Part shown: positions 5,837 through 18,856 of the stretch, one piece after another
How the letters are laid out: each line of letters begins with the position of its first letter
Position numbering within the stretch: the stretch's first letter is position 1
Source of the DNA: an uncultured Chloroflexia bacterium
Lineage (GTDB): Bacteria > Chloroflexota > Limnocylindria > QHBO01
Direction: 5' to 3'
NCBI GenBank assembly: GCA_963827475.1
Contig: CAWHAZ010000007.1
Location: 64,001 to 128,000 of the forward strand
DNA length: 64,000 bases
Position numbers and translations under genes: made by a program
Notes under the pieces: generated by a model
The model's database searches: none
What the model was told of the DNA's origin: nothing
Seen by the model: only the letters and a program-made list of their open reading frames with translations

Positions 5837-5887
5837 CCCGATTTCCCGAGGTCCATATGCTGGAACCATGTCCAGACATCCGGAACG
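5833..5887 (+). promoter_or_regulatory. Sigma70-type promoter with candidate IclR operator
   Basis: TTGACC(5833)-N17-TATGCT(5856), followed by TGTCCAGACATCCGGAACG (5869-5887). Confidence 0.7.
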
Positions 5888-5918
5888 CTGCGACGTGGAC
5901 GGGGGCGCCGGAAGGCCG

Positions 5919-7128
5919 ATGGCGCAACGAGGCCCGTTGGCTGACCTCCGGGTTCTGGAACTCGGCACCCTGATTGCCGGACCCCTCGCCGGCCGCATCT
6001 TCGCGGACTTCGGCGCGGAGGTCATCAAGATCGAGCACCCGGACCGGGGAGACCCGCTCCGGAAGTGGGGGATGACGTGGGACGGCACCGACTCGCTGTG
6101 GCACCTCGTCCAATCGCGCGGCAAGCTGTCGGTGGCCGCCGATCTCCATGACCCGGCCGACCAGGACTTCGTCCGCCAGCTCGCCGCGGAGAGCGACATC
6201 CTCATCGAGAACTTCCGGCCCGGTCGGCTCGAGTCGTGGAACCTGGACCCCGAGGACCTGATCGGGCTCAATCCCCGCCTCATCGTGATGCGGATTTCGG
6301 GGTACGGCCAGACGGGGCCTTTGCGGAATCAACCGGCGTTCGGGACGATTGCCGAGGCGGCCGGGGGACTGCGCTTCATCACCGGGGAGCCGGACCGCCC
6401 GCCGGCGAGGGTGGGGCTCAGCCTGGGCGATTCGATCGCGTCGCTGCAGGCGGTGGTCGGATGCCTGATCGCCCTCCACGAGCGAGGAATCTCCGGCCGA
6501 GGGCAGGTGGTGGACGTCGCGCTGACCGAGGCCCTCTTCTCTATTGCTCGAGGGGATCCTCCCGGAGTACGGCTACTTCGGGGTCGTGCGCGAGCGCACC
6601 GGAAACATCGCCCACAACTCGGCGCCGACCAACGTGTACGCATGCGCCGACGGGGAATCGGTATGCATCGCGGCCAACACCGCCCGGCTGTTCCGATCGC
6701 TCTTCACGATCATCGGTCGAGAAGACGCCGCTTCCGACCCGGTCCTGGCCACCAACGAAGGGCGCGTGGAGCGCGCTGCCGAGCTCGATGCCGCCATCGC
6801 GGCCTGGACAAGATCAAGGACTGCCGACGAGGTCGTTGAGACGCTGCGCGCCCACCAGGTGCCCGTGAGCCGGATCAACACCGTCGCCGACATCGCTGCG
6901 GACCCGCAGTTCCTGGCTCGGGACATGCTTGTCCAGGTGGAAGACGACCGCCTCGAGCGTCCGCTCCTCGTCCCCGGCGTGGTGCCCAAGCTGTCCCGGA
7001 CACCCGGGCGCGTCCCGCACCTGGCCCAGGAGCTGGGAGCCTCCACGGAGGCGATTCGCCGCCGGACTCGGACGGCGAGGCGACGCGGAGGCTCCGCGGA
7101 GCCGGCCGCCTCGGAAGCGACTCGCTAG
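5919..7128 (+). CDS. Family III CoA-transferase (CaiB/BaiF); frameshift ~6545
   Basis: PLADLRVLELGTLIAGP, FGAEVIKIEHP, ENFRPG, ISGYGQTGP, catalytic Asp in SLGDSIA. Confidence 0.92.
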
Positions 7129-7139
7129 CGTTCCCTCGA

Positions 7140-8112
7140 GTGGGAATCGTCCAGACATTCCGCGGGCCGATCGACTCGGCCGGTCTGGGGCCAACCTTGA
7201 TCCACGAGCACGTCTTCGTGCGCAATTTCGAGCTCGAGGTGAACCTTCCCGATCCGGAGTGGGATCGGCAGCAGGCGGTCGCGGCCGCCGTCGCCGGCCT
7301 CACCGATCTGTTCAGCCTCGGGGTTGGCACCGTGGTCGACCTCACGGTCCCGGGACTGGGCCGCGACGTTTCGCTCGTCGGCGAGGTCGCCGACCAGGTC
7401 CCCGTCCACCTGGTCGCGTCGACCGGGTGGTACACGCCGAACGTCCTGCCGACGTATTTCCAGTTCCACGGACCGGGGCGCGCGATCGAGGGACCCGACC
7501 GGCTCACCGAGCTGTTCGTGCGCGACATCACCGAGGGGATCGGTGGGACGCGCGTGCGAGCCGGCATGCTGAAGGTCATGACCGATGGCGACGGGATCAC
7601 ACCGGACGTCGCCCGGGTGATGGCGGCAGCCGCGCTGGCCCACCAGGAAACCGGCGTGGCCATCACCACGCATTCCCTCCCCGCGTCGCGGAACGGGATC
7701 GACCAGCAGTCGTTTCTCGTTGCGCGCGGCGTGCCGCCAGACCGCATCATCATCGGCCACTCCGGCGACAGCGAGGACCTCGACTACCTGAGGGCGCTCA
7801 TGGACAACGGCTCGACGATCGGGATGGACCGCTTCGGGATGGAGCAGGTCCTGCCCGATGATCGGCGCATCAGGACGGTGCTCACCCTCCTCGAATCGGG
7901 ATACGCCGACCGGATGGTTCTCTCCCACGACGCGGCCTTCTACAGCCACGTCACGCCGCCATCCTGGCGGGCGGCATCCGCGCCCCGGTGGCGGATGGAC
8001 ACCATCCACCGCGAGATCCTGCCGGGCCTTCGGGATGCCGGTGTTGCCGAGGACGCGATCGAGCAGATGCTCACGCGTCAATCCTCGGCGTCTGCTGGAG
8101 CCACAGGCATGA
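7140..8112 (+). CDS. Phosphotriesterase-like lactonase/hydrolase; frameshift near the 3' end
   Basis: HEH, MLKV, TTH, IGHSGD and SHD metal ligands; family C-terminus NPRRLL is in the frame ending at 8112. Confidence 0.88.
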
Positions 8113-9089
8113 AGGCTGCCCTGCTCGTCCGTCCCGGTGAACTCACGGTCGACGACATCCCGGACCCATCGGTCGGCCCCGATGACGTCGAGATCGCCGT
8201 CGGCGGCGTCGGTCTGTGTGGATCGGACCTGAGCGTCTTCAGTGGTCACTGGCAGGCCCCGGAGTACCCCTGGGTGATGGGGCACGAGATCTTCGGCACG
8301 GTGGTCGGCGTTGGACCCGGAGTTTCGCCGGAGCGGGTGGGAGAAACGGTCGTCGTCGAGCCCAACATCGCCTGCCTCACCTGCGCCCAGTGCCAGCGTG
8401 GGTGGACCTCGGCCTGCGTGTCTCGACAGTCAATCGGCATGAATCGCCAGGGTGGCCTTGCCGAACGGCTCGTCGTACCCGCTCGCTTCGCGTGGGCGAT
8501 CCGAGGGCTGGGGCCCACGGACCTCGTCTGCGTCGAGCCAGCGACGGTGGCCCTCGCCGCCCTGCGACGCCTGGGCTCGCCGTTGCCGTCCTCCGCCCTG
8601 GTCGTCGGCGCGGGCGCCCAGGGGCTGCTGATGTCGCTCGTTCTCCAGCACCGCGGGACCGGCGTCGACGTGTTCGACATCAACCCAGATCGCCTTGCCT
8701 TCGCGGCCGATCTCGGCGCCCGTCCGCTCGATCTGCAGCCGGATCGCCGGTTCGACCTGGTCGTCGACACGGTCGGCTCTCCCGGATCGATCGAGACCGC
8801 GCTGGGTTCCATCGCGGTGGGCGGGACGCTGCTGATCCTCGGCCTGGACGACCGCCCGTTGGGCCTCACCGCCCAGACCCTGGTCCGCCGCCAGCTCGTG
8901 GTCCGCGGCTCGCTGACGTACGACCACCCCGAGGACTTCGCTGCCTCGGTCGCGGCCATCTCGGAGCGCCGCCTGGTGCCAGGTCGAATCGTCCGCCACG
9001 CGTACGCGCTGGAGGAGGTCCAGGCGGCCTTCGAGCAGGGCGCTTCCGTTGCCGGGAAATCGTGGATTCGCATCGGCGGAGAGGGATGA
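8109..9089 (+). CDS. Zn-dependent medium-chain dehydrogenase
   Basis: MKAALL start overlapping the upstream stop (ATGA); GLCGSD, GHE, CxxCxxCx7C, GAGAQG. Confidence 0.9.
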   Translation: MKAALLVRPGELTVDDIPDPSVGPDDVEIAVGGVGLCGSDLSVFSGHWQAPEYPWVMGHEIFGTVVGVGPGVSPERVGETVVVEPNIACLTCAQCQRGWTSACVSRQSIGMNRQGGLAERLVVPARFAWAIRGLGPTDLVCVEPATVALAALRRLGSPLPSSALVVGAGAQGLLMSLVLQHRGTGVDVFDINPDRLAFAADLGARPLDLQPDRRFDLVVDTVGSPGSIETALGSIAVGGTLLILGLDDRPLGLTAQTLVRRQLVVRGSLTYDHPEDFAASVAAISERRLVPGRIVRHAYALEEVQAAFEQGASVAGKSWIRIGGEG

Positions 9090-9096
9090 CGAATCC

Positions 9097-9152
9097 TTGA
9101 CCCGGGCCTCGCCCGTCCCGTATCCTAGTCCGGTGTCCAACTATGCGGAACG
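9097..9152 (+). promoter_or_regulatory. Sigma70-type promoter with candidate IclR operator
   Basis: TTGACC(9097)-N18-TATCCT(9121), followed by TGTCCAACTATGCGGAACG (9134-9152). Confidence 0.7.
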
Positions 9153-9254
9153 ATCGTTCCGCGCGACACAGGCGCTCAGATGTCCCAGAGCCGTGTGCCC
9201 TCGCAAGCTTGTCCAGGCGGTTCCGTGACCAGTGCATCAAGGAAGGGAGATTCC

Positions 9255-10307
9255 ATGAGCAGGCGTAACCGATCCCTCATCTTCGTGGTGACCGCGCTCC
9301 TCGTGCTGACGGCCTGCCAGAGCAGCGCCAGCGGGGAGCCCTCGGCCGACGCCAGCAGCGCGGCCAGCGAGCCCGCGGCGTCGGAAGCGGCGCAGGAGCC
9401 CTTCGAGCTCAGCCTCGCGCACTCGTACCAGCCCGCCCAGCCCCAGGTCGTCTGTGGCGCCGACATCATCAAGGAAGAGGTCGAGGCCGCGGACGTTGGG
9501 ATCACGATCGAGATCTTCGGGGCCAGCGAGCTGGGCCCAGACGCCGACCGCATCCAGTCGGTCATCGCCGGTGACATCGACATGGACATCCAGGGCGCAT
9601 CGGCCCTGAGTGCCGTCTACGCGCCGATGAGTGCCGTCGACGGCGCGTTCGTCTTCGACGACAGCGCGCACATGTACACGTTCTTCTCGGGCGACGCCTC
9701 GGATCCACTGACGGAGGGCTTCGAGGAGGAGACCGGCGTCCACATCCTCGGTGCGTGGAATACAGGCGCCCGGCAGTTCACGGCGAACGTTCCGATTCGA
9801 TCTCCCGCCGACCTCGAGGGGCTCCGGATGCGGTTCCCGCCGTCGCCGCAGTTCCTCATGAATGCGGCCGCGATGGGCGCCGAGCCCGTCGAGGTTGCCT
9901 TCGAGGACCTATACCTCGCTCTCCAGCAGGGCACGGTGGATGGCCAGGAGAACCCGATCACGAACATCGACGCCATCAACCTCGATGAGGTTCAGAGCCA
10001 CATCAGTCTGTCGAGCCACCAGCTCAGCTCGAACCTCGTGATCATTGGCGAGGTGTGGAACGAGCTCAGCACGGTCCAGCAGGACGCTCTGGCCGCCGCC
10101 GTGGAGGAGGCGATGGTTGAGGAGCCGGTGTGCGCCGCGGAGACCGAGGACGAGATCAAGGCTACGTGGGAAGCAGACGGAACGATGGAGATCGTGGATG
10201 ACGTCGACCGCGACGCCTTCCGCGAAATGGCAGAGCCGTACCTGCGGGAGAACTTCACTCCTGAGCAGGTCGAGGTTCTGGACGCCATCCGCTCGACCGC
10301 GGAGTAG
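9255..10307 (+). CDS. dctP: TRAP transporter substrate-binding lipoprotein
   Basis: Lipobox LTAC; DLEGLRMR; LYLALQQGTVDGQENP. Confidence 0.92.
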   Translation: MSRRNRSLIFVVTALLVLTACQSSASGEPSADASSAASEPAASEAAQEPFELSLAHSYQPAQPQVVCGADIIKEEVEAADVGITIEIFGASELGPDADRIQSVIAGDIDMDIQGASALSAVYAPMSAVDGAFVFDDSAHMYTFFSGDASDPLTEGFEEETGVHILGAWNTGARQFTANVPIRSPADLEGLRMRFPPSPQFLMNAAAMGAEPVEVAFEDLYLALQQGTVDGQENPITNIDAINLDEVQSHISLSSHQLSSNLVIIGEVWNELSTVQQDALAAAVEEAMVEEPVCAAETEDEIKATWEADGTMEIVDDVDRDAFREMAEPYLRENFTPEQVEVLDAIRSTAE

Positions 10308-10314
10308 CATCGGC

Positions 10315-10350
10315 ACTCGGTGTCCGGGGACCCAACCCCGGGCACCGAGT
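10315..10350 (+). terminator. Intra-operon stem-loop after dctP
   Basis: ACTCGGTGTCCGGGG-ACCCAA-CCCCGGGCACCGAGT; 15-bp stem with one G-U pair. Confidence 0.65.
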
Positions 10351-10420
10351 CCACCTCCAGGCCCGGCATCTCACTATGGGGTGAAGCCGGTCACGGTCAC
10401 CGGAGGAAGGTGAGCTCCTG

Positions 10421-11050
10421 ATGGCCCCTGACGATCGCCGCCCTGATGACCCTGCCGACGTGTCGGTCGAGTCAGTTTTCGAGTCAGAGCCGCCGACCGA
10501 AACCGAGCTTTTCGAGGAGAACCTGCACCCGGAGATCCTGCCCGGGCGGGAGCCGTGGCGCTCGATCGTGCATGGGATCGGCATCGTCGAGCAGGCGGTC
10601 GGGGCGTTCCTCATCCTCGTCATCCTGGTCCTGGTCGTATCCCTCGTCGCCCAGCGGTATCTCCCCGGTGTCAGCCTGCCGTGGACCGGGGAGGTCGCGC
10701 GGCTCTCGATGGTGTGGGCCACGTTCGTCATGTCCGGCTACCTCGCCTCGCGCGACCGGCACATCGCCATCCACCTCGTCGACTACGTGCTGAAGGGACG
10801 AGCGTTGGCGGCGATCAAGCTCGCCGCCAACGTCGTCGTGTTCGTCACCTGCGTGGGCCTCGTCTACGCCACGATCCAGCTGCTGGCCGATGACGTGGGC
10901 CAGGTCACACCGGCGGCCGAGATCCCCCTGCTGATCGTGAATTCGGTACCGATCGTCGGGTTCAGCCTCACCGCGCTGCGAGCGGCGCTCGCCATGGCGG
11001 TCATCGACCTCCCGGCCCTGCGACGACCGTCAGAGAGCGCCCCCGCGTGA
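10421..11050 (+). CDS. dctQ: TRAP transporter small permease
   Basis: Four TM helices; PWTGEVARLSMVW; RHIAI. Confidence 0.9.
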   Translation: MAPDDRRPDDPADVSVESVFESEPPTETELFEENLHPEILPGREPWRSIVHGIGIVEQAVGAFLILVILVLVVSLVAQRYLPGVSLPWTGEVARLSMVWATFVMSGYLASRDRHIAIHLVDYVLKGRALAAIKLAANVVVFVTCVGLVYATIQLLADDVGQVTPAAEIPLLIVNSVPIVGFSLTALRAALAMAVIDLPALRRPSESAPA

Positions 11051-12322
11051 CCCTGCCCCTCCTGCTGATCGCGATCCTCCTTCTCTTCCTGCTGCGTGTC
11101 CCGATGGCCTTCGCCATCCTCGGGCCGTCGCTCGTTTACCTCCTGGTGGAGGACTACACCCTCCACCTGGGGGTTCGGACCGTCATGCAGGGCATCAACA
11201 GCTGGCCGCTGCTGGCAGTCCCGCTCTTCATCCTGGTCGGGACGGTGGCGACCCGGACGGAGATCGCCGACCGGCTCTACGAAGCTGCGGTCCTGCTGCT
11301 CGGACCGCTTCGAGCCGGTCTCGCCTACGTGAACATCGCGGTCAGCCTGGGCTTCTCCTGGATGAGCGGGGCCGCCCTGGCCGACGCGGCCGGCATCGGC
11401 TCCATCGAAGTGAACCACATGCGGAAAAAGGGATATCCGGCCGAGTTCTCGGTAGGCCTCAGCGCGAGCTCGGCCCTGATCAGCCCAATCATGCCGCCCA
11501 GCATCCCGGCCGTGGTGTATGCGTCGGTGGCTGCCGTCTCGACCGGTGCGTTATTCGCGGCGGCCGTGATCCCAGCCCTGCTCATGACTCTGTCGCTGGT
11601 GGTGGTGGTCTATCTCTGGGCCCGCCGCCGGCCCGACCTCGTCGGTGACCCCTACAGCTGGAGCGCGGTCCGACGGTCGCTCCTGCGCGCGCTCCCGGCG
11701 CTGGGTGCCCCAGTTCTCATCCTCGGCGGCATCCTCGAGCGGCATTTTCACGCCCACCGAGGCCGCCGGCATCGCCGCCCTGTATATGCTCCTGCTGGCG
11801 TTCTCCTACCGGTCGGTGACGGTCCGTGACACGGCGCTCATCTTCCGCGACACGGCGGTGATCACCGGTCAGATCATGCTCATCATCGGCGCGTCTGCCC
11901 TCCTAAGCTGGATCCTGGCCCGGGAGCAGGTGCCGCAGACTGTGGCCACCGGACTGCTGGAGCTGACCGACAACCCGGTCGTCTTCCTGCTCATCGTGAA
12001 CGTCCTGCTGCTCGTCTGCGGGATGATCCTCGAGCCGACGTCGGCGCTGCTGATCATCACACCCATCCTGTTGCCGATCGCGGTCCAGTACGGGATCGAC
12101 CCCGTGCACCTCGGGTCGATCATCATCTTCAACCTGATGATCGGACTGTTGACCCCGCCGATGGGCGGAGTGGCCTTCGTGCTGAGCTCGGTGACCGGCA
12201 TCCCGGTGGAGCGTGTCTTCCGGGGCGCCGCGATGTACCTCCCGGCGATGATCATCGTCCTGCTGCTGATCACGTACATCCCGGCCCTCACCCTGTGGCT
12301 GCCGGAAGCTCTGGGACTCTGA
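11047..12322 (+). CDS. dctM: TRAP transporter large permease; frameshift ~11740
   Basis: LLAVPLFIL, MSGAALAD, IMPPSIP, GIFTPTEA, GIDPVH, IGLLTPPMG. Confidence 0.92.
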
Positions 12323-12336
12323 GCGACGAAGACGAC

Positions 12337-13077
12337 ATGTCCGTCCTCGAGAAGACCAGCGAACTGATCGACTGCCTCGGCCGGGCCGGGGAGCCGGTGA
12401 CGCTGACGTACGTTCGCTCCGCACTCGGGATGCCGAAGTCGTCGACGCATCGACTGCTGGCCGATCTCGCCGGCCTCGGCATCGTCCGGCGAACCGACGA
12501 TGGTCGGTACTCGCTCGGGCCCCGGCTGCTGTACTGGGGCGAGGCCGCCGCCGACACCTTCGAGATGCGCGATGTGGCCGAGCAGCCCATGCGCCGACTG
12601 CGGGATGAGCTGGGCGAGAGCGTTCACCTCTACGTCCGGGAGCACGACACGCGCATCTGCATCGCCGCGGTCGAGGCACGGCACGAGCTCCGTCCGTTCA
12701 TCCAGCTGGGCCGGCCGCTGCCGCTCCGTGCCGGCGCCGCGGGGAAGCTCCTGCTCGCCTTTGCCGATCAGGAGGTCCAGGATCTCGAGCTGGCCAGGGC
12801 GCTCGAGGACGCCTCGACCATGCCCAACGCCCCCGGCAGCCAGTTGGGCGCTCAGCTGGAGGAGATCCGCATGAGCCGATGGGCCACGTCGGTTGGGGAG
12901 CGTGAGGAGGGCGTCTCCGCCGTGGCGACACCGATCGTCGACTCGCGCGACCATGTCGTGGCCGCCCTCTCCATTTCGGCGCCCACGACGCGGCTCGGGT
13001 CCGACCGGTTCGAGGACATGCGGCGCCCGCTGGTCGAGAGCGCGGCCGAGGTGAGCGCCCTCCTCAGGCGCGGCTGA
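12337..13077 (+). CDS. IclR family transcriptional regulator
   Basis: HTH LGMPKSSTHRLL; GESVHLYVR; GAAGKLLLAF. Confidence 0.93.
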   Translation: MSVLEKTSELIDCLGRAGEPVTLTYVRSALGMPKSSTHRLLADLAGLGIVRRTDDGRYSLGPRLLYWGEAAADTFEMRDVAEQPMRRLRDELGESVHLYVREHDTRICIAAVEARHELRPFIQLGRPLPLRAGAAGKLLLAFADQEVQDLELARALEDASTMPNAPGSQLGAQLEEIRMSRWATSVGEREEGVSAVATPIVDSRDHVVAALSISAPTTRLGSDRFEDMRRPLVESAAEVSALLRRG

Positions 13078-13867
13078 GCGAGCCCACCGCCGCGTCGTCG
13101 TCGGCTGGCGGAGCGCCTCTCGGCGTCGGTGTCCAGCCCTGCGCGGCGCTGATCTCGTCCGCCGCCGCCGACAGGAGCGGTCGGAGGTCCACCAGGCGCT
13201 CGGCGGTGAGCCGGCCGGTTGGCCCGGAGATCGCGAGCGCGGCGTGGACGGCGCCAGCGACGTTCCGAATGGGGACCGCGGCCGCGGCCAGTCCCTCCTC
13301 GCGTTCTCCGAATGACATCGACCACCCGGTGGCGCGGATCTCCTCGAGCTGGGCCGTCAGCTCGTCCAGCCCCGGTGCGCGCGGTGAAATCGGTGCCCGG
13401 GCGACGCGGCGAAGCTCGATGGCCTGGGTCCCCGGGTCGGCGAACGCGAGCAGCAGCTTGCCGGATGCCCCGGCCGACAGGGGGAGCGGCTTGCCCACCT
13501 CGGTGAAATGGCGGAGCTCGTAGTTGCCTTCGACGGCCGCCACGCACACCCGCCGATCGCGCTGGCGCACGTAGAGGTGGACGCTTTCCCCTTCCGCGTC
13601 ACGGAGACGAACCATGGATGCCTTCGAGATCCGGACGATGTCGTTGACGCCGCTCGCGACGTCGCCCCACCGCGTCAGCCGCGGTCCCGGCACGTAGTTC
13701 GCCGTCCCCACCCGGAAGAGCAGGCCGAGCCTGACCAGCTCCGAGAGCAGCCGATGCGTCGACGACCGCGGCTGGCCCAGGCGCTGGGCGATCGAGGTGA
13801 GCGTCGCTTCGTCGGGCGCGTCCGCGACCAGGTCCAGGATCTCCGTGGCCTTGGCAAGGACCGACAT
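13064..13867 (-). CDS. IclR family transcriptional regulator (paralog of the preceding gene)
   Basis: LGQPRSSTHRLL; GESVHLYVR; GASGKLLLAF. Confidence 0.93.
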   Translation of the reverse strand: MSVLAKATEILDLVADAPDEATLTSIAQRLGQPRSSTHRLLSELVRLGLLFRVGTANYVPGPRLTRWGDVASGVNDIVRISKASMVRLRDAEGESVHLYVRQRDRRVCVAAVEGNYELRHFTEVGKPLPLSAGASGKLLLAFADPGTQAIELRRVARAPISPRAPGLDELTAQLEEIRATGWSMSFGEREEGLAAAAVPIRNVAGAVHAALAISGPTGRLTAERLVDLRPLLSAAADEISAAQGWTPTPRGAPPADDDAAVGSLSRA

Positions 13868-15274
13868 CAGCTGACCGGCGTTCCGTAGAACTCGCCGAAC
13901 AGCTCCTGCTCCGACGGCCGGTCCTCGGCGATGGGCCGGCTCACCCAGGTCGTGTTCATGTAGTGCTTGAGATGGATGTTCTCCGAGGTGATGTTCCCGC
14001 CCCAGGTGCCGCAGCCCAGGCTGGACGTCATGGGCATGCCATTGGTGAATGCCCCCGCATTCGCCTTCGACTGCGGCTGGCGAACCATGATTCGGCTCAC
14101 CGGCGCCAGGCGGGCCAGGCGATCGATGTGATCGTCGTCGAACGAGTAGATGCCGCAGGAATGGCCCTTGCCGCCGACCTCGTAGATGGCCTCCACCATC
14201 TCGAGGGCCTGGTCGAACCCCGCATAGCGGTACATCGACAGGACCACGCTCAGCTTCTCGGAGCTGAACGGGTGCTCCCTGCCGATCTCCGTCTGCTCAA
14301 CCACGAGGAACCTGACCTCGCGTCCAATCTCGAATCCGGCCTTCTCGGCCAGCGCCTGGGGTGAGATGGCGATGGTGTCCGGCGTGCGCCGGCCGTCGTC
14401 GTGCCACAGCACCGCGCGCAGCTGGTTCGCCTCCTCGGGCGTGACGACACGGCCCCCCTCTGCCTCCAGGGCGGCGCGCAGCGCGTCGTAGACCGTCTCC
14501 TCGACGACGAGGTTGCCGTCCGCCGAGCATCCGGACCCGAAGTCGGAGGTCTTGCTGATTCGCGTGTTGCGGGCCGCATCGGCGACATCGGCCGTCTCGT
14601 CGATGACCATGGTCGAGTTGCCGGCGCCGACGCCGTAGGCCGGCGTGCCCGAGCTGTACGCGGCCTTCACCATGTCGCGCCCGCCGGTGGCCTGGACCAT
14701 GTCCGCCTGGCTCATGAGGTACTGGGCGGTGGGAATGCTCGGCCGCTCGATGCACCCGATGAGATCCACGGGGGCATCGACGCGCGCCAGCGCGCGACGC
14801 ATGATCTCGACGGTCTCGCGGGTCGTCCGCTGGCTGCGGGGGTGGGGCGAGAAGATGACCGCATCCCGACACTTGATGGCAAAGAGACCCGACGCCAGGC
14901 GGCGTCAGCTCCGGGTTCGTGGTCGGCACCAATGAGGCGACCAGCCCGACGGGCTTGGCGTACTTGACGATGCCCTTCTCGGGGAGCTCCTCGATCACCC
15001 CGACGCTCTTCTGGCGAAGGACGTCGCGGAGGATGCCCATGACCTTGAACCGCTTCGCCACGCGGCTCTCCGGGTCGCCGATGCCACTCTCCTCCACGCC
15101 CATGTGGGCGAGCCGGGTGAACGTGGTCTCGTTGGCGACCGCCCAGGCGACCGCCTGGCAAACGCGGTCCACGTCCTCCTGGGTCGCACCCTCGAACGAT
15201 CGGAGCGCGGCGCGCCCACGAGCGACGAGCTCGTCGACGTGGTCTGTTTCTTCAGGTGTGATCGTTCGCGGCAT
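13867..15274 (-). CDS. CoA-acylating aldehyde dehydrogenase (AdhE N-terminal/SauS-like); frameshift ~14885
   Basis: PTTNP, ATGG, GVGAGN, catalytic Cys in GSGCS, EKLS, SLGCGTWGGN. Confidence 0.88.
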
Positions 15275-15340
15275 GAGTTCTCCGGATGGGTTGTTGGACG
15301 GGCCGGGAGGCTACACTTGGCATCTGTTCGAACCCAATCA

Positions 15341-15379
15341 TGTCCGTCATGATGGACTCGACTATCCAGTATGTGGAAG
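15341..15379. promoter_or_regulatory. Two imperfect palindromes in the divergent ALDH/ThDP intergenic region (candidate IclR sites)
   Basis: TGTCCGTCATGATGGAC (15341-15357) and TATCCAGTATGTGGAAG (15363-15379) resemble the sites at 5869 and 9134. Confidence 0.5.
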
Positions 15380-15433
15380 TGTACCGACATCGGCTGCGGC
15401 GCGATGCGGGCTGACCGCCCAGGGAGGTAGGAG

Positions 15434-17137
15434 ATGAAGCCGACCGTGGCCGACCACATCGCGTCGTTCCTGGCGGACCGTGGCGTCGATCGCGTGTTCG
15501 GCCTCTGCGGTCACACGAACATCTCCCTCATCGCGGCTCTCGAGCGTCACGGATCCGTGCGCTTCGTCACCACAAGGCACGAGCAGGTGGCCGCCCATGC
15601 CGCGGACGGGTACGCCCGCGTGTCGGGACGACCCGGCGTCGTCCTGCTCCACGTGGGTCCGGGCATCACGAACGCGACGACCGGCGTCGCAACAGCCGCC
15701 TTCGACTCGGTGCCGCTCCTCGTCATCGCCGGAGATGTGCCGTCCTACTACGAAGGGCGCGGACCACACCAGGAGTTCAACCTCCGCCGGGACGCGGACC
15801 AGACCTCGGTGTACGAACCGTTCGTGAAACGGGCGTGGCGCGCTCGCCGCGCTGACCAGGTTCCCCGCATCCTCGCGCGCGCCTGGGACATCGCGATCGC
15901 GGGGCGCCCGGGCCCGGTCCTCGTCTCGGTCCCCATGGACGTCCTCGCCGAGGCCCTCGATGCCGAGGTCCTCCCTGCTACCCGCGTGCTCCCACCTGCG
16001 CTGACTCCGGCGACCGCCCACGCCGTGGCCCAGGAGCTGCGCCATGCCGAGCGGCCGCTGATTCTGGCCGGCGGCGGGACACGGCGTGCCGCCGTGGAGG
16101 TCCAGGAACTGGCCGAACGAACCGGGGCGCCAGTGGCCCACACCCTGATGGGAACCGGGGTCCTCCCGCCGGACCATCCACAGCTGGCCGGGATGATCGG
16201 TTTCTGGGGGTTGCCGACGGCCAACCGGCTGGCGCGGGAGGCCGACGTCATCTTGGCGGTCGGGACGCGCTTCCCCGAAACCGACAGCAGCAGCTGGGAG
16301 GCCGGGGTCACGTTCCAGATTCCCCCGACCCGTCTGCTGCATGTGGATCTCGACCCGCACGAGCCGGGGCGCAACTACCCCGCCTTCATCGCCGCCACCG
16401 CCGACGCCGCGCAGGCGCTGCGCGCAATCGCCGACGCCTACGGAGACCCGACGCCCGAGCGCGGATACGACTGGGCGGGCCTCCGCCGCGAGCGCGACGC
16501 CTTCCTCGCGCCCAGCCGCGAAAACGCCACCTCGGACGATTTCCCGCTCCTCCCCGAGCGAATCCTCGCCGACGTCCGGCGCGCCGTGCCCGACGCGATC
16601 CTGGTCACGGACGTGGGCTGGAATAAGAACGGTGTGGGTCAGCAGTACCCGGTGGATACACCGGACTCGTTCCTCACCCCCGGCGGCTTCTCCACGATGG
16701 GGTTCGGCCCTGCGGCTGTCCTGGGCGTGGCATCGGCCTCGACCAGGCCGCCCATCGCACTGGTCGGCGACGGCGCCTTCGGCTCGAATCCCAGTGTCGT
16801 GGCGACCGCCGTGGAAATGGGCGTGCGCCCGATATGGGTGGTCATGAACAACTCCGCCTTCGGCACCATCGCGGGCCTCCAGCGAAAGCACTATGGCACC
16901 GGCTACGGGTGCGAGTTCGAGGCCGATGGGGCCCCGTACACCGTGGACTTCGCCGCGATGGCCCGCGCCTTTGGAGCCGAGGGCATCGCCATCGGCAGCG
17001 CGGCCGAGCTCGAGCCGGCACTTCGCGGGGCCTTGCAATCCACACGGCCGGTCGTGGTGGACATCCCCATGCGGAATACGCCGGTGCTGACGCCAGGCGA
17101 ATGGGACATCGAACGGATCTACCAGGTGGCCCAATGA
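15434..17137 (+). CDS. Thiamine-diphosphate-dependent enzyme (acetolactate synthase/decarboxylase-like)
   Basis: RHEQ catalytic Glu; GPGITN; GDGAF...NN ThDP motif; GGAGG RBS. Confidence 0.9.
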   Translation: MKPTVADHIASFLADRGVDRVFGLCGHTNISLIAALERHGSVRFVTTRHEQVAAHAADGYARVSGRPGVVLLHVGPGITNATTGVATAAFDSVPLLVIAGDVPSYYEGRGPHQEFNLRRDADQTSVYEPFVKRAWRARRADQVPRILARAWDIAIAGRPGPVLVSVPMDVLAEALDAEVLPATRVLPPALTPATAHAVAQELRHAERPLILAGGGTRRAAVEVQELAERTGAPVAHTLMGTGVLPPDHPQLAGMIGFWGLPTANRLAREADVILAVGTRFPETDSSSWEAGVTFQIPPTRLLHVDLDPHEPGRNYPAFIAATADAAQALRAIADAYGDPTPERGYDWAGLRRERDAFLAPSRENATSDDFPLLPERILADVRRAVPDAILVTDVGWNKNGVGQQYPVDTPDSFLTPGGFSTMGFGPAAVLGVASASTRPPIALVGDGAFGSNPSVVATAVEMGVRPIWVVMNNSAFGTIAGLQRKHYGTGYGCEFEADGAPYTVDFAAMARAFGAEGIAIGSAAELEPALRGALQSTRPVVVDIPMRNTPVLTPGEWDIERIYQVAQ

Positions 17138-17964
17138 CCGAGCAGCCGACCAGGGCCCATCAGGGAACGGCCGCCGGCAAGGCGCACCGAGCGGAAGCCT
17201 GGTCCACGGCGATCACCGCCACCACGGACGAGCGGGTCTTCGTGCGCGGCGTCGCGCTGGACGAAGCCATCGGCCGCGAGCCCTTCCCGGCCGTGCTCCT
17301 CAGACTGTGGCGCGGTGACGCGCCCACCGAGATGGAAGCGGGCCTCCTCGGCGCCTGCCTGGTGGCATCGATCGATCACGGGCCGCTCGCCCCCTCGGCC
17401 CTGGTGACTCGGACGATTGCGTCCACCCAGGCGACGCCGATGGCCGGATTGGCGGGCGGGGTGCTGGCCTTCGGTGAGCTGCACGGAGCCGTCGTCAGTC
17501 GCGCGATGCGGATCCTGGCCAGCGCACCCGCCGAGGGAGCGCTGGACCAGTGGGCCGACGAGGTCTTCGAGGCCGAGCGGGCCGCGGGGCGACGGATCCC
17601 CGGCGTCGGTCACCGCTGGCACCGACACGATCTTCGGGTGGAGCGGCTCCTCGAGGTCGCCTCAGGCGTGTCCGACAGCAACCACGAGGCCGCCATTCGC
17701 GCCCTCGCCGCGCGGGTGAGTACGCACACCGGCAATCCAACCCCGGTGAACATCGACGGGGCGCTGGCGGTGGCACTGACCCGCCTCCGATTGGATCCGA
17801 TCTATGGCGACTTCCTGTTCGCCATCGCGAGGAGCTTCGGCCTCGCAGCCCATTTCGTGGAGGAGCAGGCCCGGCAGCGGCCAATGCGGACGATCGATCC
17901 CACGGCGGCGGAATACGACGGCGCGCCGCTTCCCGCGGTCGAGCCAGAGGAGGCAGGTGCATGA
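17134..17964 (+). CDS. Citryl-CoA lyase-like protein (short citrate synthase family)
   Basis: WSTAI, DHG, LHG, PGVGH, NIDG, ARSFGLAAH. Confidence 0.85.
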   Translation: MTEQPTRAHQGTAAGKAHRAEAWSTAITATTDERVFVRGVALDEAIGREPFPAVLLRLWRGDAPTEMEAGLLGACLVASIDHGPLAPSALVTRTIASTQATPMAGLAGGVLAFGELHGAVVSRAMRILASAPAEGALDQWADEVFEAERAAGRRIPGVGHRWHRHDLRVERLLEVASGVSDSNHEAAIRALAARVSTHTGNPTPVNIDGALAVALTRLRLDPIYGDFLFAIARSFGLAAHFVEEQARQRPMRTIDPTAAEYDGAPLPAVEPEEAGA

Positions 17965-18332
17965 AGGTCCGATTGATCTCGCCGTTCCTCGATGGCGAGC
18001 AGATCTGGATTGGTCTCGACGAGCCCGGCATGCGGCGCAAGGCGTTCAGGTTCGTCTCGCCCGATATCGGCTCGGAGGAGTTCATGGCCGGCATCACCCT
18101 GTTCGAGCCGGGGGAGGCGAGCTCGTATCACGTCCACCCTGACTCCGAGGAGATCAACCTCGTGCTCGAGGGATCCGGCATCCTCGTGTCGGAGGAAGAG
18201 GAGGTCGCGTTCGAGGCCGGCCAGGCAATGTGGGTTCCGAGGGGCGTCCACCATCAGCACCGGAATACCGGCTCGAGCTCGCTGAAGCTGTTCTGGGTGT
18301 ATTCGCCTCAAGCGCCCCTCCCCAGCACCTAG
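17961..18332 (+). CDS. Cupin domain protein
   Basis: HVHPDSEE and PRGVHH metal motifs. Confidence 0.88.
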   Translation: MKVRLISPFLDGEQIWIGLDEPGMRRKAFRFVSPDIGSEEFMAGITLFEPGEASSYHVHPDSEEINLVLEGSGILVSEEEEVAFEAGQAMWVPRGVHHQHRNTGSSSLKLFWVYSPQAPLPST

Positions 18333-18349
18333 GGCCGCCTGGCGCTCGG

Positions 18350-18850
18350 TCAGCCGAACGTGACGCCGTGCTCCTCGATCAGCGCAGGGATGCTGCTCGG
18401 ATCGGTCTCGAGCCCATAGCGTTCTCGAATCTCGGCCAGCGCTTCCTGGGGCGGCCGTCCGCCGCCGAAGAGGGCAACCAGCTCCTCGAAGTACCGCTCG
18501 AAGCCGGCCGGGGAAATGATCTCGAGCACCCTGGCTTCCGCGTCGCCCGCGTTCCAGAACGTGTGCCATTCGTTCCGCGGCTTGACGATCAGGTCGCCTG
18601 GCTCGCCGACCACCACCCGGTCACCGAGTTTGGCCCCGACTCGTCCCTCCAGGATGAAGCTGTACTCGTCCTCGCGGGTGTGCCGATGCAAAGGTGCAGC
18701 CAACGCGCGCGGGGCGAGGGGATGCTCGACAACGGCGAACCCTCCGCCTGACGCGTCACCGCCGATCAGGAAGCGGACCCCGAGACCACCGATGCTCCCA
18801 CCCGGACCCTCGCCTGATCCAACGACCCGGCCCTGGCCGGCCTCCATCAC
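18350..18850 (-). CDS. Cupin domain protein
   Basis: PLHRHTREDE, PRNEWHTF, SPAGFERYF. Confidence 0.88.
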   Translation of the reverse strand: MMEAGQGRVVGSGEGPGGSIGGLGVRFLIGGDASGGGFAVVEHPLAPRALAAPLHRHTREDEYSFILEGRVGAKLGDRVVVGEPGDLIVKPRNEWHTFWNAGDAEARVLEIISPAGFERYFEELVALFGGGRPPQEALAEIRERYGLETDPSSIPALIEEHGVTFG

Positions 18851-18856
18851 CTGCCC

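Follow-up and report, generated by a model that had tools for sequence, protein, structure and literature searches.

Which compound do the 12 genes at positions 5919 to 18332 of the window (the 64,000-nucleotide stretch of soil Chloroflexi DNA analyzed here) serve to degrade? A first-pass annotation had proposed a branched hydroxy-(poly)carboxylate or a lactone. We favor, with a probability of about 50% and on the basis of sequence comparisons, a different reading: the cluster may be this lineage's own version of a widespread pathway, apparently not described before, for the catabolism of hydroaromatic acids of the quinate or 3-dehydroquinate type, one that would bypass protocatechuate. Such a route would open the ring of a plant acid without an aromatic intermediate and, while seemingly undescribed, would be common in environmental DNA. 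The earlier view that this combination of genes is not a described pathway held up: a full-text literature search gave no described pathway matching the gene set, and the NCBIfam comparison reached no equivalog cutoff.

Gene content and integrity of the cluster

Pfam searches bore out the gene inventory and the gene positions of the first-pass annotation, and all the families that it listed were found in the cluster. The forward strand begins with a gene for a family III (CaiB/BaiF) CoA-transferase (5919 to 7128); translation could plausibly begin with the ATG at 5919 or, alternatively, at 5868. Its Pfam CoA_transf_3 match (5514 to 7128) is split over two frames, and the copy in the congeneric genome G002 is intact (381.7 bits). 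Then follow, on the same strand, genes for a PTE-like lactonase of the amidohydrolase superfamily (7140 to 8112; Pfam PTE, 243.7 bits), a Zn-dependent medium-chain dehydrogenase (Zn-ADH; 8109 to 9089; ADH_N and ADH_zinc_N), the TRAP solute-binding protein DctP (9180 to 10307; DctP, 199.9 bits), the small membrane subunit DctQ (10421 to 11050; DctQ, 65.6 bits), the large permease DctM (11047 to 12322; DctM match split over two ORFs), and IclR-family regulator 1 (12337 to 13077; start taken from tblastn). The reverse strand carries IclR-family regulator 2 (13064 to 13867; both regulators match HTH_IclR and IclR_C) and a CoA-acylating aldehyde dehydrogenase (ALDH) of the EutE/SucD/SauS type (13867 to 15274; Aldedh). 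Across a divergent promoter region (15275 to 15433), the forward strand resumes with a ThDP enzyme of the acetolactate synthase (ALS)-like superfamily (15434 to 17137; TPP_enzyme_N/M/C), a short citrate-synthase-fold protein resembling citryl-CoA lyase (CCL; 17134 to 17964; C-terminal domain of Citrate_synt), and a 123-amino-acid (aa) metal-binding monocupin (17961 to 18332; Cupin_2).

The overlapping start and stop codons reported before were confirmed. The overlap is GTGA between DctQ and DctM and ATGA between the ThDP enzyme and CCL, between CCL and the cupin, and, once the frame is corrected, between the lactonase and Zn-ADH (8109 to 8112). The ALDH stop and the IclR2 start overlap by 1 nt, and IclR2 is probably cotranscribed with the ALDH gene. 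When nine Limnocylindria intergenic regions were aligned, the divergent promoter region proved to hold a conserved ACACTTG[GA]CA element (15313 to 15324) and a dyad, GGAC..TCC (15354 to 15367); these elements are a candidate IclR operator.

The genes form a conserved unit and have not come together by chance. Genomes G002, G013, and G010 are colinear with the cluster, and because the colinearity with G010 spans only 5829 to 18374, that comparison sets the cluster boundaries. The genes do co-occur in other genomes; 11 of 13 genome-contig loci, from 11 other Limnocylindria species genomes, have the colinear cluster, at 60 to 90% protein identity.

Described as complete-looking, the cluster has four frame breaks in this assembly that had been overlooked. 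The genes for the CoA-transferase, the lactonase, DctM, and the ALDH each carry a single extra base (at about 6544, at about 8078 in the region of the lactonase C terminus, at 11737, and at 14888, respectively), and the one at about 8078 fuses the lactonase and Zn-ADH into one 649-aa ORF. Contigs from four short-read runs (X1 to X4) have one base fewer at 6542 (the three runs with coverage), at 8076 (three of the four runs), and at 11737 and 14888 (all four runs); every cluster gene is intact in the short-read-like congener G002. Because neither source has the extra bases, they are most likely assembly errors, and we treat all four genes as intact. If the frameshifts were instead real, the pathway would be a decaying relic, nonfunctional here, a reading that fits four +1 insertions within 12.4 kb and a small genome (1.92 Mb). 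We consider this highly improbable: beyond the short-read contigs, frame breaks also strike unrelated genes of the window (a P-type ATPase, a second Zn-ADH, an amidohydrolase, and an ABC ATPase) and are frequent in other few-contig assemblies (G013, G010, L022 to L024, and L026), and protein identity to relatives stays at 82 to 98% on either side of each break.

The enzymes and their occurrence elsewhere

The ALDH, read from its intact 468-aa orthologue in G002, has SauS as its top NCBIfam match (485.2 bits versus a cutoff of 600), and its solved relatives are acetylating acetaldehyde dehydrogenase (5j78) and the acylating succinate-semialdehyde dehydrogenase SucD (8cei). The invariant Cys is kept. 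In distant loci, the ALDHs encoded beside the ThDP gene are 63 to 69% identical to it, GSGCS being invariant, and the orthologous acylating ALDHs of 41 related loci are 64 to 75% identical to it. The ThDP enzyme, with FGLCGHTN at residue 22, reaches no NCBIfam cutoff (ALS, 349 versus 538 bits; IolD [TIGR04377], 238 versus 715 bits). Orthologues that are 51 to 55% identical occur in Azoarcus sp. KH32C, four actinomycetes (Nonomuraea and Streptomyces among the hosts), and genomes G427 and G147; counterparts in the same identity range occur in two more genomes from the phylum to which G427 belongs. The paralogues are at most 40% identical. FGxCGHTN, RHEQ, and GDG..NN are invariant, as is DVGWNKN across the orthologues. 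We propose that this enzyme is a ring-opening C-C hydrolase. Its scores favor ALS models over IolD, and a decarboxylase or carboligase role is an alternative.

The nearest solved relative of the CCL-like protein is the citryl-CoA lyase 6hxp (120.5 bits), and methylcitrate synthase 3hwk also aligns. It falls under every NCBIfam citryl-CoA lyase cutoff (best, 152.3 versus 212 bits), and the motifs DHG, GxGHR..D.R, and N.D are invariant in eight homologues. Its proposed role is that of an acyl-CoA lyase releasing acetyl-CoA and a 2-oxo acid. The cupin matches generic cupin models only, and its residues H57, H59, E63/64, and H98 do not vary among 11 homologues; our guess is that it might be a dehydratase or isomerase standing in for a small TIM barrel.

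For the CoA-transferase, the top NCBIfam match is succinate--glutarate CoA-transferase (245.8 bits versus a cutoff of 750); CoA:oxalate and formyl-CoA transferase models score 178 to 210 bits. The lactonase is closest among solved structures to 4if2, a "phosphotriesterase homology protein" (290.8 bits), and then to aryldialkylphosphatases. Zn-ADH, a candidate for the first dehydrogenase of the pathway, has only sub-cutoff matches (Zn-dependent oxidoreductase, 147.9 bits; L-threonine 3-dehydrogenase, 144.5 bits; scyllo-inosose 3-dehydrogenase IolM, 139.7 bits). Zn-ADH genes lie directly 5' of the ThDP gene in three metagenome loci, and the Zn-ADHs of other clusters are only 31 to 38% identical to that of the window. 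DctP has a lipoprotein-type signal (LTAC) and matches solved relatives at only about 100 to 117 bits; its G002 counterpart scores 176.2 bits against TIGR00787 (cutoff, 175.05), and the intact DctM of G002 scores 363.6 bits against TIGR00786 (cutoff, 268).

The core, consisting of the ThDP enzyme with FGxCGHTN, the CoA-acylating ALDH, CCL, and the cupin, recurs in Azoarcus, in actinomycetes, in other Chloroflexota, and in 80 metagenome loci. These 80 loci are interrelated and were picked through one gene; 45 are at least 10 kb long, and 35 have at least 3 kb on both sides. A shikimate dehydrogenase and/or a dehydroquinase is present in 35 of the 45 loci of at least 10 kb, and a dehydroquinase in 29 of them. 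Two unrelated dehydroquinase families recur across the 80 loci (type I in 18 and type II in 19), and a QuiC-type gene is nearby in 13. Immediately 5' of the ThDP gene, 25 loci have CCL and 24 have the acylating ALDH; immediately 3' of it, 23 have a TIM barrel, 9 have an HMG-CoA lyase-like protein (HMGL), and 4 have a cupin. In locus L106, for example, the order is dehydroquinase I, HMGL, acylating ALDH, ThDP, cupin, TctC, TctA, and shikimate dehydrogenase. The Azoarcus run comprises HPPD-like, QuiC-like TIM barrel, CoA-transferase, CCL, ThDP, shikimate dehydrogenase, and type I dehydroquinase genes, and all four actinomycete loci have a gene of the shikimate/quinate dehydrogenase family (PRK12549, 353 to 399 bits versus a cutoff of 235). 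In G147, an IclR-CCL-acylating ALDH-dehydroquinase II operon faces a ThDP-ABC-cupin-Zn-ADH operon. Two observations speak against the quinate reading: the clustered dehydroquinase of G147 is the only one in that genome, and the aro genes adjoining the module in G270 and G427 could be biosynthetic.

We consider it quite probable that, as a general matter, the ThDP-ALDH-lyase module serves quinate/shikimate catabolism. For the window itself, the chances are about even that quinate or a near analogue is the substrate. No shikimate dehydrogenase or dehydroquinase was found in the cluster or in the 11 colinear Limnocylindria loci, including their 10-kb flanks, or genome-wide in the window's genome (G000) or G002, which are 90 to 91% complete. 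Because these genes were not found there, the link of the window to quinate rests on the orthology of four or five genes.

Some genes of the module replace each other. Among the 80 loci, 29 have CCL only, 22 have a protein of the HMG-CoA lyase family only, and none has both; among the 35 well-flanked loci the split is 13, 17, and 0, with neither lyase in 5. The HMGL-like proteins pass NF004283 (282 to 313 bits versus a cutoff of 246). A small TIM barrel only, a cupin only, and both are found in 44, 5, and 0 of the 80 loci. Hypergeometric probabilities for exclusivity were 6e-6 and 0.016, values that overstate independence because the loci are related and were selected through one gene. The mutual exclusion of CCL and HMGL indicates that a retro-Claisen cleavage giving acetyl-CoA and an oxo-acid is very probably among the steps, as the first-pass annotation had it. 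The acylating ALDH only, a classical ALDH only, and both are found in 40, 12, and 1 loci. A CoA-transferase is present in 11 of the 13 loci with a classical ALDH but in only 6 of the 41 with an acylating ALDH. Since the acylating ALDH mostly occurs without a CoA-transferase, the thioester used by the lyase would be made from an aldehyde, and the order of steps would then be ThDP enzyme, ALDH, and lyase, contrary to the order in the first-pass annotation.

A proposed pathway and its alternatives

In quinate, C1 carries a hydroxyl and a carboxyl group and is flanked by two CH2 groups, like the central carbon of citrate and homocitrate. Given this resemblance, six core enzymes would suffice for a parsimonious route to acetyl-CoA and 2-oxoglutarate, and the mass balance closes. 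The TRAP transporter DctPQM would import the carboxylate, and Zn-ADH would oxidize quinate to 3-dehydroquinate. The cupin (in most other versions a small AP_endonuc_2 TIM barrel) would strip the C5 hydroxyl via an enediolate to give a cyclic 3,4-dione, a step modeled on IolE and dehydroshikimate dehydratase. The ThDP enzyme would then hydrolyze the C3-C4 bond, as modeled on IolD and cyclohexane-1,2-dione hydrolase, to give 2-hydroxy-2-(2-oxoethyl)glutarate ("homocitrate semialdehyde"). The CoA-acylating ALDH would convert this aldehyde to a homocitryl-CoA-type thioester, from which the citrate-synthase-fold lyase would release acetyl-CoA and 2-oxoglutarate. The balance would be quinate + 2 NAD+ + CoA → acetyl-CoA + 2-oxoglutarate + 2 NADH, with no O2; the route was earlier taken to be O2 independent, and no oxygenase family is evident. 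The two IclR proteins would regulate the divergent operons. That the chemistry is correct exactly as drawn is doubtful.

The lactonase and the family III CoA-transferase are lineage-specific add-ons. They probably feed in or salvage a lactone or free acid, either quinic lactone or homocitrate lactone via homocitrate to the CoA ester. The core model leaves both without a role, and a CoA-transferase beside an acylating ALDH looks redundant.

The first-pass annotation made lactone opening and CoA activation steps of the pathway. If its order held for this lineage, a branched hydroxy-tricarboxylate or its lactone (e.g., homocitrate lactone) would be imported, opened by the lactonase, activated by the CoA-transferase, and cleaved by the lyase to acetyl-CoA and a 2-oxo acid, with ThDP decarboxylation of that acid and capture of the aldehyde by the ALDH to follow; the acyl-CoA product (e.g., succinyl-CoA) would serve again as the CoA donor. 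For this lineage, such an order draws on the presence of both enzymes in the first operon of the window, on the succinyl-CoA-dependent dicarboxylate transferases that best match the CoA-transferase, on the resemblance of the ALDH to 8cei, on the ALS and decarboxylase models against which the ThDP enzyme scores best, and on CoA-transferase-CCL pairs without a ThDP gene that recur in Agrobacterium vitis and Azospirillum. Activation by a CoA-transferase is dispensable in the related loci, however; its absence from 35 of the 41 loci with an orthologous ALDH means that there the ALDH must supply what the lyase cleaves. None of the 80 metagenome loci has a PTE homologue, which argues against lactone opening as a general step. 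Moreover, the same ThDP, ALDH, lyase, and cupin genes share operons with dehydroquinase and shikimate dehydrogenase, where the ThDP enzyme is the only ring opener. The entry compound looks hydroaromatic, with a branched hydroxy-tricarboxylate as an intermediate only, and we regard the earlier order as unlikely.

A shade less likely is that two unrelated modules with their own substrates lie side by side, an operon that takes up and activates a lactone or hydroxy acid (CoA-transferase, lactonase, Zn-ADH, TRAP, and IclR1) and a ring-opening module (ALDH-IclR2 and ThDP-CCL-cupin). There is one IclR regulator per unit, the units are on separate contigs in G427 (L039 and L021), and nothing closely resembling the genes of the first operon occurs in the 80 metagenome loci, where DctP identity is only 26 to 32%. 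With contigs of just 5.1 and 10 kb, however, G427 could still have the two units next to each other; in the window and the 11 species-level genomes they are adjacent and colinear, and the colinearity with G010 ends exactly at the edges of the combined set. A ring-opening module alone would also have neither a transporter nor a dehydrogenase. We give very little credence to a C2-sulfonate pathway (SauS-like ALDH and Xsc-like ThDP enzyme, via sulfoacetaldehyde) or an oxalate-type pathway (Frc/YfdE-like CoA-transferase and Oxc/HACL-like ThDP enzyme). The SauS match of the ALDH, the CoA:oxalate and formyl-CoA transferase matches, and the oxalyl-CoA decarboxylase and 2-hydroxyacyl-CoA lyase structures among the ThDP matches (about 169 bits) point that way, but all scores are far under the curated cutoffs, Xsc is absent from the best 25 NCBIfam families of the ThDP enzyme, and Oxc/HACL rank below ALS. 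Either pathway could do without the conserved partners found here, a Claisen-type lyase, a cupin, and a dehydroquinase.

Comparison with known systems

The lactonase resembles the PTE-like lactonases (4if2, the SsoPox-type aryldialkylphosphatases, and DR0930) in its full-length Pfam PTE match, with the SsoPox-type enzymes at about 214 bits, but it reaches no NCBIfam equivalog cutoff. To our knowledge, the substrates of the known members are acyl-homoserine or aliphatic lactones, and none of these enzymes belongs to a TRAP/CoA-transferase operon.

The classical quinate/shikimate route runs through QuiA or QsuD/YdiB, dehydroquinase, and dehydroshikimate dehydratase (QuiC/QsuB) to protocatechuate and the beta-ketoadipate pathway. 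Related clusters share its entry enzymes, a member of the shikimate/quinate dehydrogenase family together with a dehydroquinase of type I or II, whereas the window lacks these genes and none turned up in its genome. The conserved module also has no ring-cleaving dioxygenase, and the route proposed here would open the alicyclic ring before aromatization, with no need for O2.

The same succession of reaction types occurs in the myo-inositol pathway (IolG, IolE, IolD, IolB, IolC, IolJ, and IolA) known from Bacillus subtilis, whose logic the proposed route would follow. In both, a dehydrogenase would yield a cyclic ketone, an AP_endonuc_2 TIM barrel a 1,2-dione, ThDP-dependent ring hydrolysis an aldehyde-acid, and an acylating ALDH a CoA thioester, and the TIM barrels and the ThDP enzymes of the two fall into the same Pfam families. 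However, the score against TIGR04377 sets the ThDP enzyme apart from IolD, the ALDH is of the EutE/SucD/SauS type and not of the IolA/MmsA type, and the clustered partners are dehydroquinase and shikimate dehydrogenase, not iol genes. There is also no kinase or aldolase here; the last step would fall to a Claisen-type acyl-CoA lyase of the citrate-synthase fold or the HMG-CoA lyase family.

Cyclohexane-1,2-dione hydrolase of Azoarcus sp. 22Lin, an ALS-like ThDP enzyme, hydrolyzes a cyclic 1,2-dione in an oxygen-independent reaction that yields an oxo-acid and is a precedent for the ring hydrolysis proposed here. Its substrate is not a carboxylate, and the 60 best solved relatives of the window's ThDP enzyme do not include it, which points to distant relatedness at most. 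Finally, the lyase shares the short citrate-synthase fold and the DHG, GxGHR, and N.D motifs with citryl-CoA lyases (the Hydrogenobacter-type CCL, the CCL module of ATP-citrate lyase, and 6hxp). It differs from them in having no citryl-CoA synthetase partner, in its catabolic context, and in being interchangeable with a protein of the HMG-CoA lyase family; its substrate is likely a homocitryl-type thioester and not citryl-CoA.

Gene order and reading frames of the cluster

The cluster spans positions 5919 to 18332 of the window. As the whole window has a G+C content of about 70%, genes were picked by codon-position G+C and Pfam. First in order is a family III CoA-transferase (plausible start, ATG at 5919), followed by a PTE-family protein, a Zn-dependent dehydrogenase (Zn-ADH), and the TRAP proteins DctP, DctQ, and DctM, all assigned with Pfam; DctP has a lipoprotein-type signal. 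An IclR gene follows DctM on the forward strand, and a second IclR gene and an acylating-type aldehyde dehydrogenase (ALDH) are on the reverse strand. The last three genes, on the forward strand, encode a ThDP enzyme of 567 amino acids (aa) with the motif FGLCGHTN at residue 22, a short citrate-synthase-fold protein resembling citryl-CoA lyase (CCL), and a cupin of 123 aa. The first-pass annotation had listed these same gene families, and Pfam bears its inventory out. ATGA or GTGA overlaps couple DctQ to DctM, the ThDP enzyme to CCL, and CCL to the cupin, and also PTE to ADH after frame correction. No RNA run contained this region.

As assembled, four genes are broken: the CoA-transferase (CoA_transf_3) and DctM each lie in two frames and the ALDH is split, and PTE and ADH form a single 649-aa ORF. 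Compared with G002, a congener in which all the cluster genes are intact, the window carries one additional base at each of four positions (6544, 8078, 11737, and 14888). We checked the frames by aligning to the window the contigs of four public short-read runs, 92 to 99% alike, which represent relatives and not provably the window's own strain. The run contigs were one base short at 6542 (three runs with coverage), 11737 (four of four), and 14888 (four of four); at 8076 one base was absent in three of the four runs, and the fourth, with a contig of depth 2.2, showed no change. A P-type ATPase, a second Zn-ADH, an amidohydrolase, and an ABC ATPase in the window are also frame broken, and such breaks are common in other few-contig assemblies of the Limnocylindria group. 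Because the run contigs lack the extra bases, G002 is intact, and unrelated genes are hit too, we consider the four cluster genes intact and attribute the breaks most probably to errors of assembly.

The P-type ATPase (18857 to 21980, reverse strand) is split near 20330, and frame-broken or truncated-looking genes also occur at 23235 to 24279, 25628 to 26011, and 42866 to 43561 (all reverse strand) and at 57108 to 57779 (forward strand). The second Zn-ADH appears as separate ADH_N and ADH_zinc_N ORFs, the amidohydrolase as a C-terminal fragment, and the ABC ATPase as a fragment, and there is a short CN_hydrolase. These further broken genes fit assembly-wide single-base errors. At 13087 to 13132, where the minus-strand IclR gene has its 3′ end, a 44-nt stretch is replaced by two bases in all four runs; this difference, located at convergent gene ends, is either strain variation or a further assembly artifact. 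Between the cupin and the ATPase, a region of about 0.5 kb (18345 to 18865) has no counterpart in G002 or in another congener, G013, and a second Cupin_2 ORF, of 166 aa, lies at 18350 to 18850 on the reverse strand, opposite to the cluster cupin. Two elements of the divergent ALDH/ThDP intergenic region are kept across nine Limnocylindria loci: ACACTTG[GA]CA (15313 to 15324), a −35-like element, and the dyad GGAC-N6/8-(G)TCC (15354 to 15367). These are a candidate promoter and a candidate IclR operator.

Proteins encoded by the cluster

No cluster enzyme reached a curated equivalog cutoff in NCBIfam. The alignments with homologues showed intact catalytic motifs in the lyase, the ThDP enzyme, the ALDH, and the cupin. 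The CCL-like protein matched PF00285 (102.6 bits, profile positions 147 to 355) and aligned over residues 22 to 272 with a solved relative, the citryl-CoA lyase 6hxp. Its residues D81-H82-G83, G159-H160-R161, and N206-x-D208 are invariant in eight homologues and align with IDHG, GYGHRYY, and NVDGA of 6hxp; by mapping to citrate synthase, we take them to include the two His residues and the Asp that carry out Claisen catalysis. The protein fell below the NCBIfam citryl-CoA-lyase cutoffs (best, NF004869, 152.3 versus 212) and those of five further CCL models. A tblastn search of plasmids and chromids with CCL returned 59 homologues, all of less than 60% identity and often adjoined by a CoA-transferase. 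On an Agrobacterium vitis plasmid (L027) and an Azospirillum plasmid (L028), the CoA-transferase-CCL pair occurs with no ThDP gene; its neighbors are, in A. vitis, a TTT transporter and a protein of the isocitrate-lyase/PEP-mutase family and, in Azospirillum, an ABC transporter, an ALDH, and an FAD oxidoreductase. It is possible that the pair serves generally as a module for citrate-like acids.

All three Pfam domains (N, M, and C) were found in the ThDP enzyme, and E49, G456-D457-G458, and N483-N484 are invariant in seven orthologues, E49 presumably being the activating Glu and GDG..NN the ThDP-binding motif. The solved relatives were, in order, acetolactate synthases, then glyoxylate carboligase and oxalyl-CoA decarboxylase/2-hydroxyacyl-CoA lyase. 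NCBIfam scores were 349 for acetolactate synthase (ALS; cutoff, 538) and 336 for 5-guanidino-2-oxopentanoate decarboxylase (cutoff, 500). The IolD model TIGR04377 gave 238.3 bits (cutoff, 715), and membership in IolD was rejected, that cutoff being missed and the ALS-type models scoring higher. Only three plasmid or chromid records matched the enzyme at 51 to 53% identity by tblastn (next best, <40%), and in all three CoA-transferase and CCL genes adjoin the ThDP gene.

The ALDH was similar over its full length to the solved acylating enzymes 5j78, an acetylating acetaldehyde dehydrogenase (290.5 bits), and 8cei, a succinate-semialdehyde dehydrogenase (278.7 bits); G246-S247-G248-C249-S250, including the conserved catalytic Cys, is invariant. 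The TRAP system is complete, with DctP, DctQ, and DctM encoded together (Pfam), and DctM is frame broken only in the window's assembly. Its G002 counterparts scored 176.2 with TIGR00787 (cutoff, 175.05) and 363.6 with TIGR00786 (cutoff, 268.45). The solved relatives of DctP, at about 100 to 117 bits, were sialic-acid and assorted "DctP subunit" entries, which indicated no ligand. In G002 the PTE-family protein matched PF02126 at full length (251.2 bits, profile positions 1 to 298); its NCBIfam score was 139 (cutoff, 500), and its solved relatives were 4if2 (290.8 bits), presumably a Mycobacterium tuberculosis protein, and SsoPox-type lactonases. For the CoA-transferase, the NCBIfam match was succinate–glutarate CoA-transferase (246; cutoff, 750), and the solved relatives were 4ed9, YfdE, and formyl-CoA transferase. 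Several NCBIfam models matched the Zn-ADH near 140 to 148 bits. The AlphaFold model of the cupin, built from 11 homologues, had a pLDDT of 90.3, and its Foldseek matches in the PDB were all small metal cupins of a generic kind (TM1459, 1v70, TM1287, RemF, and DddK), which gave no functional lead.

Conservation of the cluster and its relatives

The window's genome (1.92 Mb in seven contigs, 90% complete) shares the cluster colinearly with G013, G002, and a third congener, G010. Colinearity with G010 is confined to 5829 to 18374, which sets the boundaries of the cluster. These were the only three with an orthologue of the ThDP enzyme among 17 congeners searched, which were 57 to 97% complete and included G021, a genome on which no conclusion rests. 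Scanning one genome per species gave 13 loci, in 11 of which the genes are arranged as in the window over the part covered by the 10-kb flank, and the CCL-like protein has relatives in more than 120 metagenome clusters at ≥72% identity. From this colinearity and recurrence we conclude that the cluster is a conserved accessory unit, and the unity that the first-pass annotation gave it stands. The module is rare in two samples of 400 other genomes each: there were three CCL matches among Chloroflexota and two ThDP orthologues in the phylum of G427, a metagenome-assembled genome (MAG) titled Acidimicrobiia.

Distant genomes have the same core in other arrangements. On a plasmid of Azoarcus sp. 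KH32C the order is IclR and, across a divider, HPPD-like, QuiC-like TIM barrel, CoA-transferase, CCL, ThDP, shikimate dehydrogenase (DH), and type I dehydroquinase. Four actinomycetes (Nonomuraea, Streptomyces, G696, and G821) have PQQ dehydrogenase-CCL-CoA-transferase-IclR and, across a divider, classical ALDH-ThDP-ABC transporter; each also has a shikimate/quinate-DH-family gene above its NCBIfam cutoff. The PQQ-dependent dehydrogenase (about 715 to 730 aa) and a ThuA-family gene often flank clusters of this type (L030, L031, L040, L041, and several metagenome loci), and the dehydrogenase of Nonomuraea has a cupredoxin-like C terminus. In G147, from another Chloroflexota family, ThDP-ABC-cupin (53%)-ZnADH faces IclR-CCL-acylating ALDH (69%)-type II dehydroquinase. 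G427 has CCL-MocA dehydrogenase-ThDP-acylating ALDH-TIM barrel-dehydroquinase II and, on a separate short contig, CoA-transferase-PTE-ADH-DctP at 60 to 71% identity to the window-type genes. In this MAG the window-type genes (60 to 74% protein identity) are on two short contigs (L021 and L039), and the ThDP enzyme is 67% identical to that of Azoarcus and about 51% identical to the window's; this mix of identities suggests module transfer or a binning problem.

Scanning metagenomes with an alignment of seven ThDP orthologues and the patterns DVGWNKN and FG[TL]CGHTN gave 576 relatives among 602 stretches examined (about 2,900 estimated in the whole collection), of which the best 80 loci were kept for neighborhood analysis. 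Genes were assigned by local tblastn with reference proteins from distant loci and by Pfam on clusters of unassigned ORFs. Among the 45 loci of at least 10 kb, shikimate DH and/or dehydroquinase was present in 35 and dehydroquinase in 29; acylating ALDH (64 to 75% identical to the window type) in 30 and classical ALDH in 11; a small AP_endonuc_2 TIM barrel in 30; and CCL, CoA-transferase, and DctP in 18, 18, and 17. Of the 80 loci, 18 have type I dehydroquinase and 19 have type II, which is unrelated to it. No family of unassigned ORFs was larger than the HMG-CoA-lyase-like (HMGL) one, which passes the NCBIfam HMG-CoA-lyase subfamily cutoff.

The lyases exclude each other: 29 of the 80 loci have CCL only, 22 have HMGL only, none has both, and 29 have neither; among the 35 loci with at least 3 kb on both sides of the ThDP gene, the numbers are 13, 17, 0, and 5. 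Likewise, 44 loci have only the TIM barrel, 5 only the cupin, and none both. Because all 80 loci were found via one gene and are mutually related, the hypergeometric values for these patterns (6 × 10^−6 for CCL/HMGL and 0.016 for TIM/cupin) are illustrations, not probabilities. Acylating ALDH alone was found in 40 loci, classical ALDH alone in 12, and both in 1; CoA-transferase accompanies 11 of 13 classical-ALDH loci versus 6 of 41 acylating-ALDH loci, and 20 of the 22 HMGL loci have acylating ALDH. Upstream of the ThDP gene is CCL (25 loci) or acylating ALDH (24); downstream, the TIM barrel is the commonest neighbor (23), followed by HMGL (9), cupin (4), and dehydroquinase II (4), the cupin being the neighbor in the window. 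Transporters were TRAP (22), MFS (14), TTT (7), and ABC (5), and regulators were IclR (21), LysR (11), and TetR (8). No PTE homologue was found in any of the 80 loci.

A proposed route for quinate-type acids

These neighborhoods suggest which compounds the core acts on. The recurrence of two unrelated dehydroquinase families in the same operons is an argument for 3-dehydroquinate and 3-dehydroshikimate as genuine intermediates. CCL and HMGL belong to unrelated acetyl-CoA Claisen families whose one common chemistry is acetyl-CoA + ketone or 2-oxo acid ↔ 3-hydroxy-3-substituted acyl-CoA; their replacement of each other makes a case for a lyase reaction of this kind among the steps, and the retro-Claisen step of the first-pass annotation stands. 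That loci have either acylating ALDH or a classical ALDH together with a CoA-transferase points to an aldehyde as the source of the thioester used by the lyase. The ThDP enzyme appears to be the sole conserved partner able to break a ring C-C bond, and ThDP ring hydrolysis has precedents in its superfamily (IolD and cyclohexane-1,2-dione hydrolase). C1 of quinate carries OH and COOH between two CH2 groups, as does the central carbon of citrate and homocitrate; C3-C4 cleavage of the quinate skeleton would give the homocitrate skeleton.

In the proposed scheme, quinate, or shikimate via dehydroshikimate and dehydroquinase, would be converted to 3-dehydroquinate. The C5 hydroxyl would be lost by an enediolate-type elimination catalyzed by the TIM barrel or the cupin, giving a 3,4-dione, which ThDP-dependent hydrolysis would open with the regiochemistry of IolD, leaving C3 as an aldehyde and C4 as a carboxylate. 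Acylating ALDH would form the CoA thioester, and the lyase would release acetyl-CoA and 2-oxoglutarate. The atom balance closes (C7H12O6 − 2H − H2O + H2O − 2H, as CoA ester), and this is probably the simplest complete scheme; no further enzyme would be required, and the functional assignments are drawn throughout from sequence, context, and family chemistry. In one variant the dehydration would be replaced by a second oxidation (MocA-type dehydrogenases are present in eight loci), yielding 4-hydroxy-2-oxoglutarate; in another, dehydroquinate would undergo acyloin cleavage directly, with a dialdehyde as the product. We put the probability at about one in three that the core is an unrecognized O2-independent, protocatechuate-free pathway from quinate and shikimate via 3-dehydroquinate to acetyl-CoA and 2-oxoglutarate, present in several phyla and common in soil and water metagenomes, with a "homocitryl-CoA lyase" that evolved twice, on the citrate-synthase and HMG-CoA-lyase folds.

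The window, with its ThDP enzyme, acylating ALDH, CCL, cupin, Zn-ADH, and TRAP system, has every core function but dehydroquinase, and under this model its organism could use quinate directly but not shikimate. Neither type I nor type II dehydroquinase was found in the window's genome or in G002. In the former, the only shikimate-DH-like match was partial (contig C2), and tblastn detected neither dehydroquinate synthase/shikimate kinase nor EPSP synthase nor prephenate dehydratase; that genome is 90% complete, and some of its genes may be masked by frame errors. The whole shikimate pathway is apparently missing from the organism, and this 1.9-Mb lineage may depend on external aromatic amino acids. 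The PTE-like putative lactonase and the CoA-transferase, peculiar to the window's lineage and G427, might open and activate a lactone or free acid (quinic lactone, or homocitrate lactone and homocitrate); this suggested role is the weakest part of the reading.

Other readings were weighed. The first-pass annotation had a branched hydroxy-polycarboxylate pass through CoA activation, lyase, 2-oxo-acid decarboxylase, and acylating ALDH. The ALDH/CoA-transferase pattern of the related loci indicates that the order is most likely reversed (ThDP enzyme, then ALDH, then lyase), with the branched acid an intermediate, not the entry substrate; for this lineage alone, a cycle of CoA-transferase, lyase, decarboxylase, and an acylating ALDH that regenerates the CoA donor is conceivable, but we consider it improbable. 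Readings as sulfoacetaldehyde (SauS/Xsc) or oxalate (Frc/Oxc) metabolism were rejected. With the SauS equivalog the ALDH scored 485.2 bits, under its cutoff of 600. The small TIM barrel could be taken for a dehydroshikimate dehydratase that makes protocatechuate; we rejected this because no conserved partner would dearomatize or cleave the aromatic ring and because the small TIM barrels have no NCBIfam match and differ from the QuiC type. None of the classical qui/qsu set (quinate/shikimate DH, dehydroquinase, and dehydroshikimate dehydratase) is in the window's cluster. The proximity of aro genes might suggest a biosynthetic (reverse) direction. The presence of transporters and of regulators of catabolic type, the location on a plasmid in Azoarcus, and the presumably irreversible hydrolase step make this unlikely.

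Among the alicyclic acids of plant origin, quinate and shikimate rank with the most abundant. If the protocatechuate-free route is correct, a defined six-enzyme set would account for O2-independent conversion to two central metabolites, ALS-like ThDP enzymes would gain a new reaction, and a physiological role would be found for the numerous homologues of "citryl-CoA lyase" and "HMG-CoA lyase" that stand as orphans beside CoA-transferases and ALDHs. Limnocylindria, with 2-Mb genomes apparently devoid of their own shikimate pathway, would feed on plant-derived quinate-type carbon. Cultured carriers are Azoarcus sp. KH32C, Nonomuraea gerenzanensis, and Streptomyces sp. NBC_01450.

The first-pass annotation had found the combination of genes unfamiliar, and our searches agree: those of full-text literature outside subscription journals gave no relevant paper, and no NCBIfam equivalog names the cluster proteins. 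Textbook bacterial catabolism of quinate and shikimate proceeds via protocatechuate and oxygen-dependent ring cleavage. Fermenting bacteria reportedly degrade both by routes that involve no aromatic compound (Brune and Schink, early 1990s); to our knowledge, the enzymes of that degradation have never been identified. The TIM barrel of the related loci is in the same Pfam family as IolE and dehydroshikimate dehydratase and is proposed to catalyze the same type of reaction. If the chemistry is confirmed, the pathway would be a new one, in which iol-like catabolic logic is applied to hydroaromatic acids and closed by a Claisen lyase.
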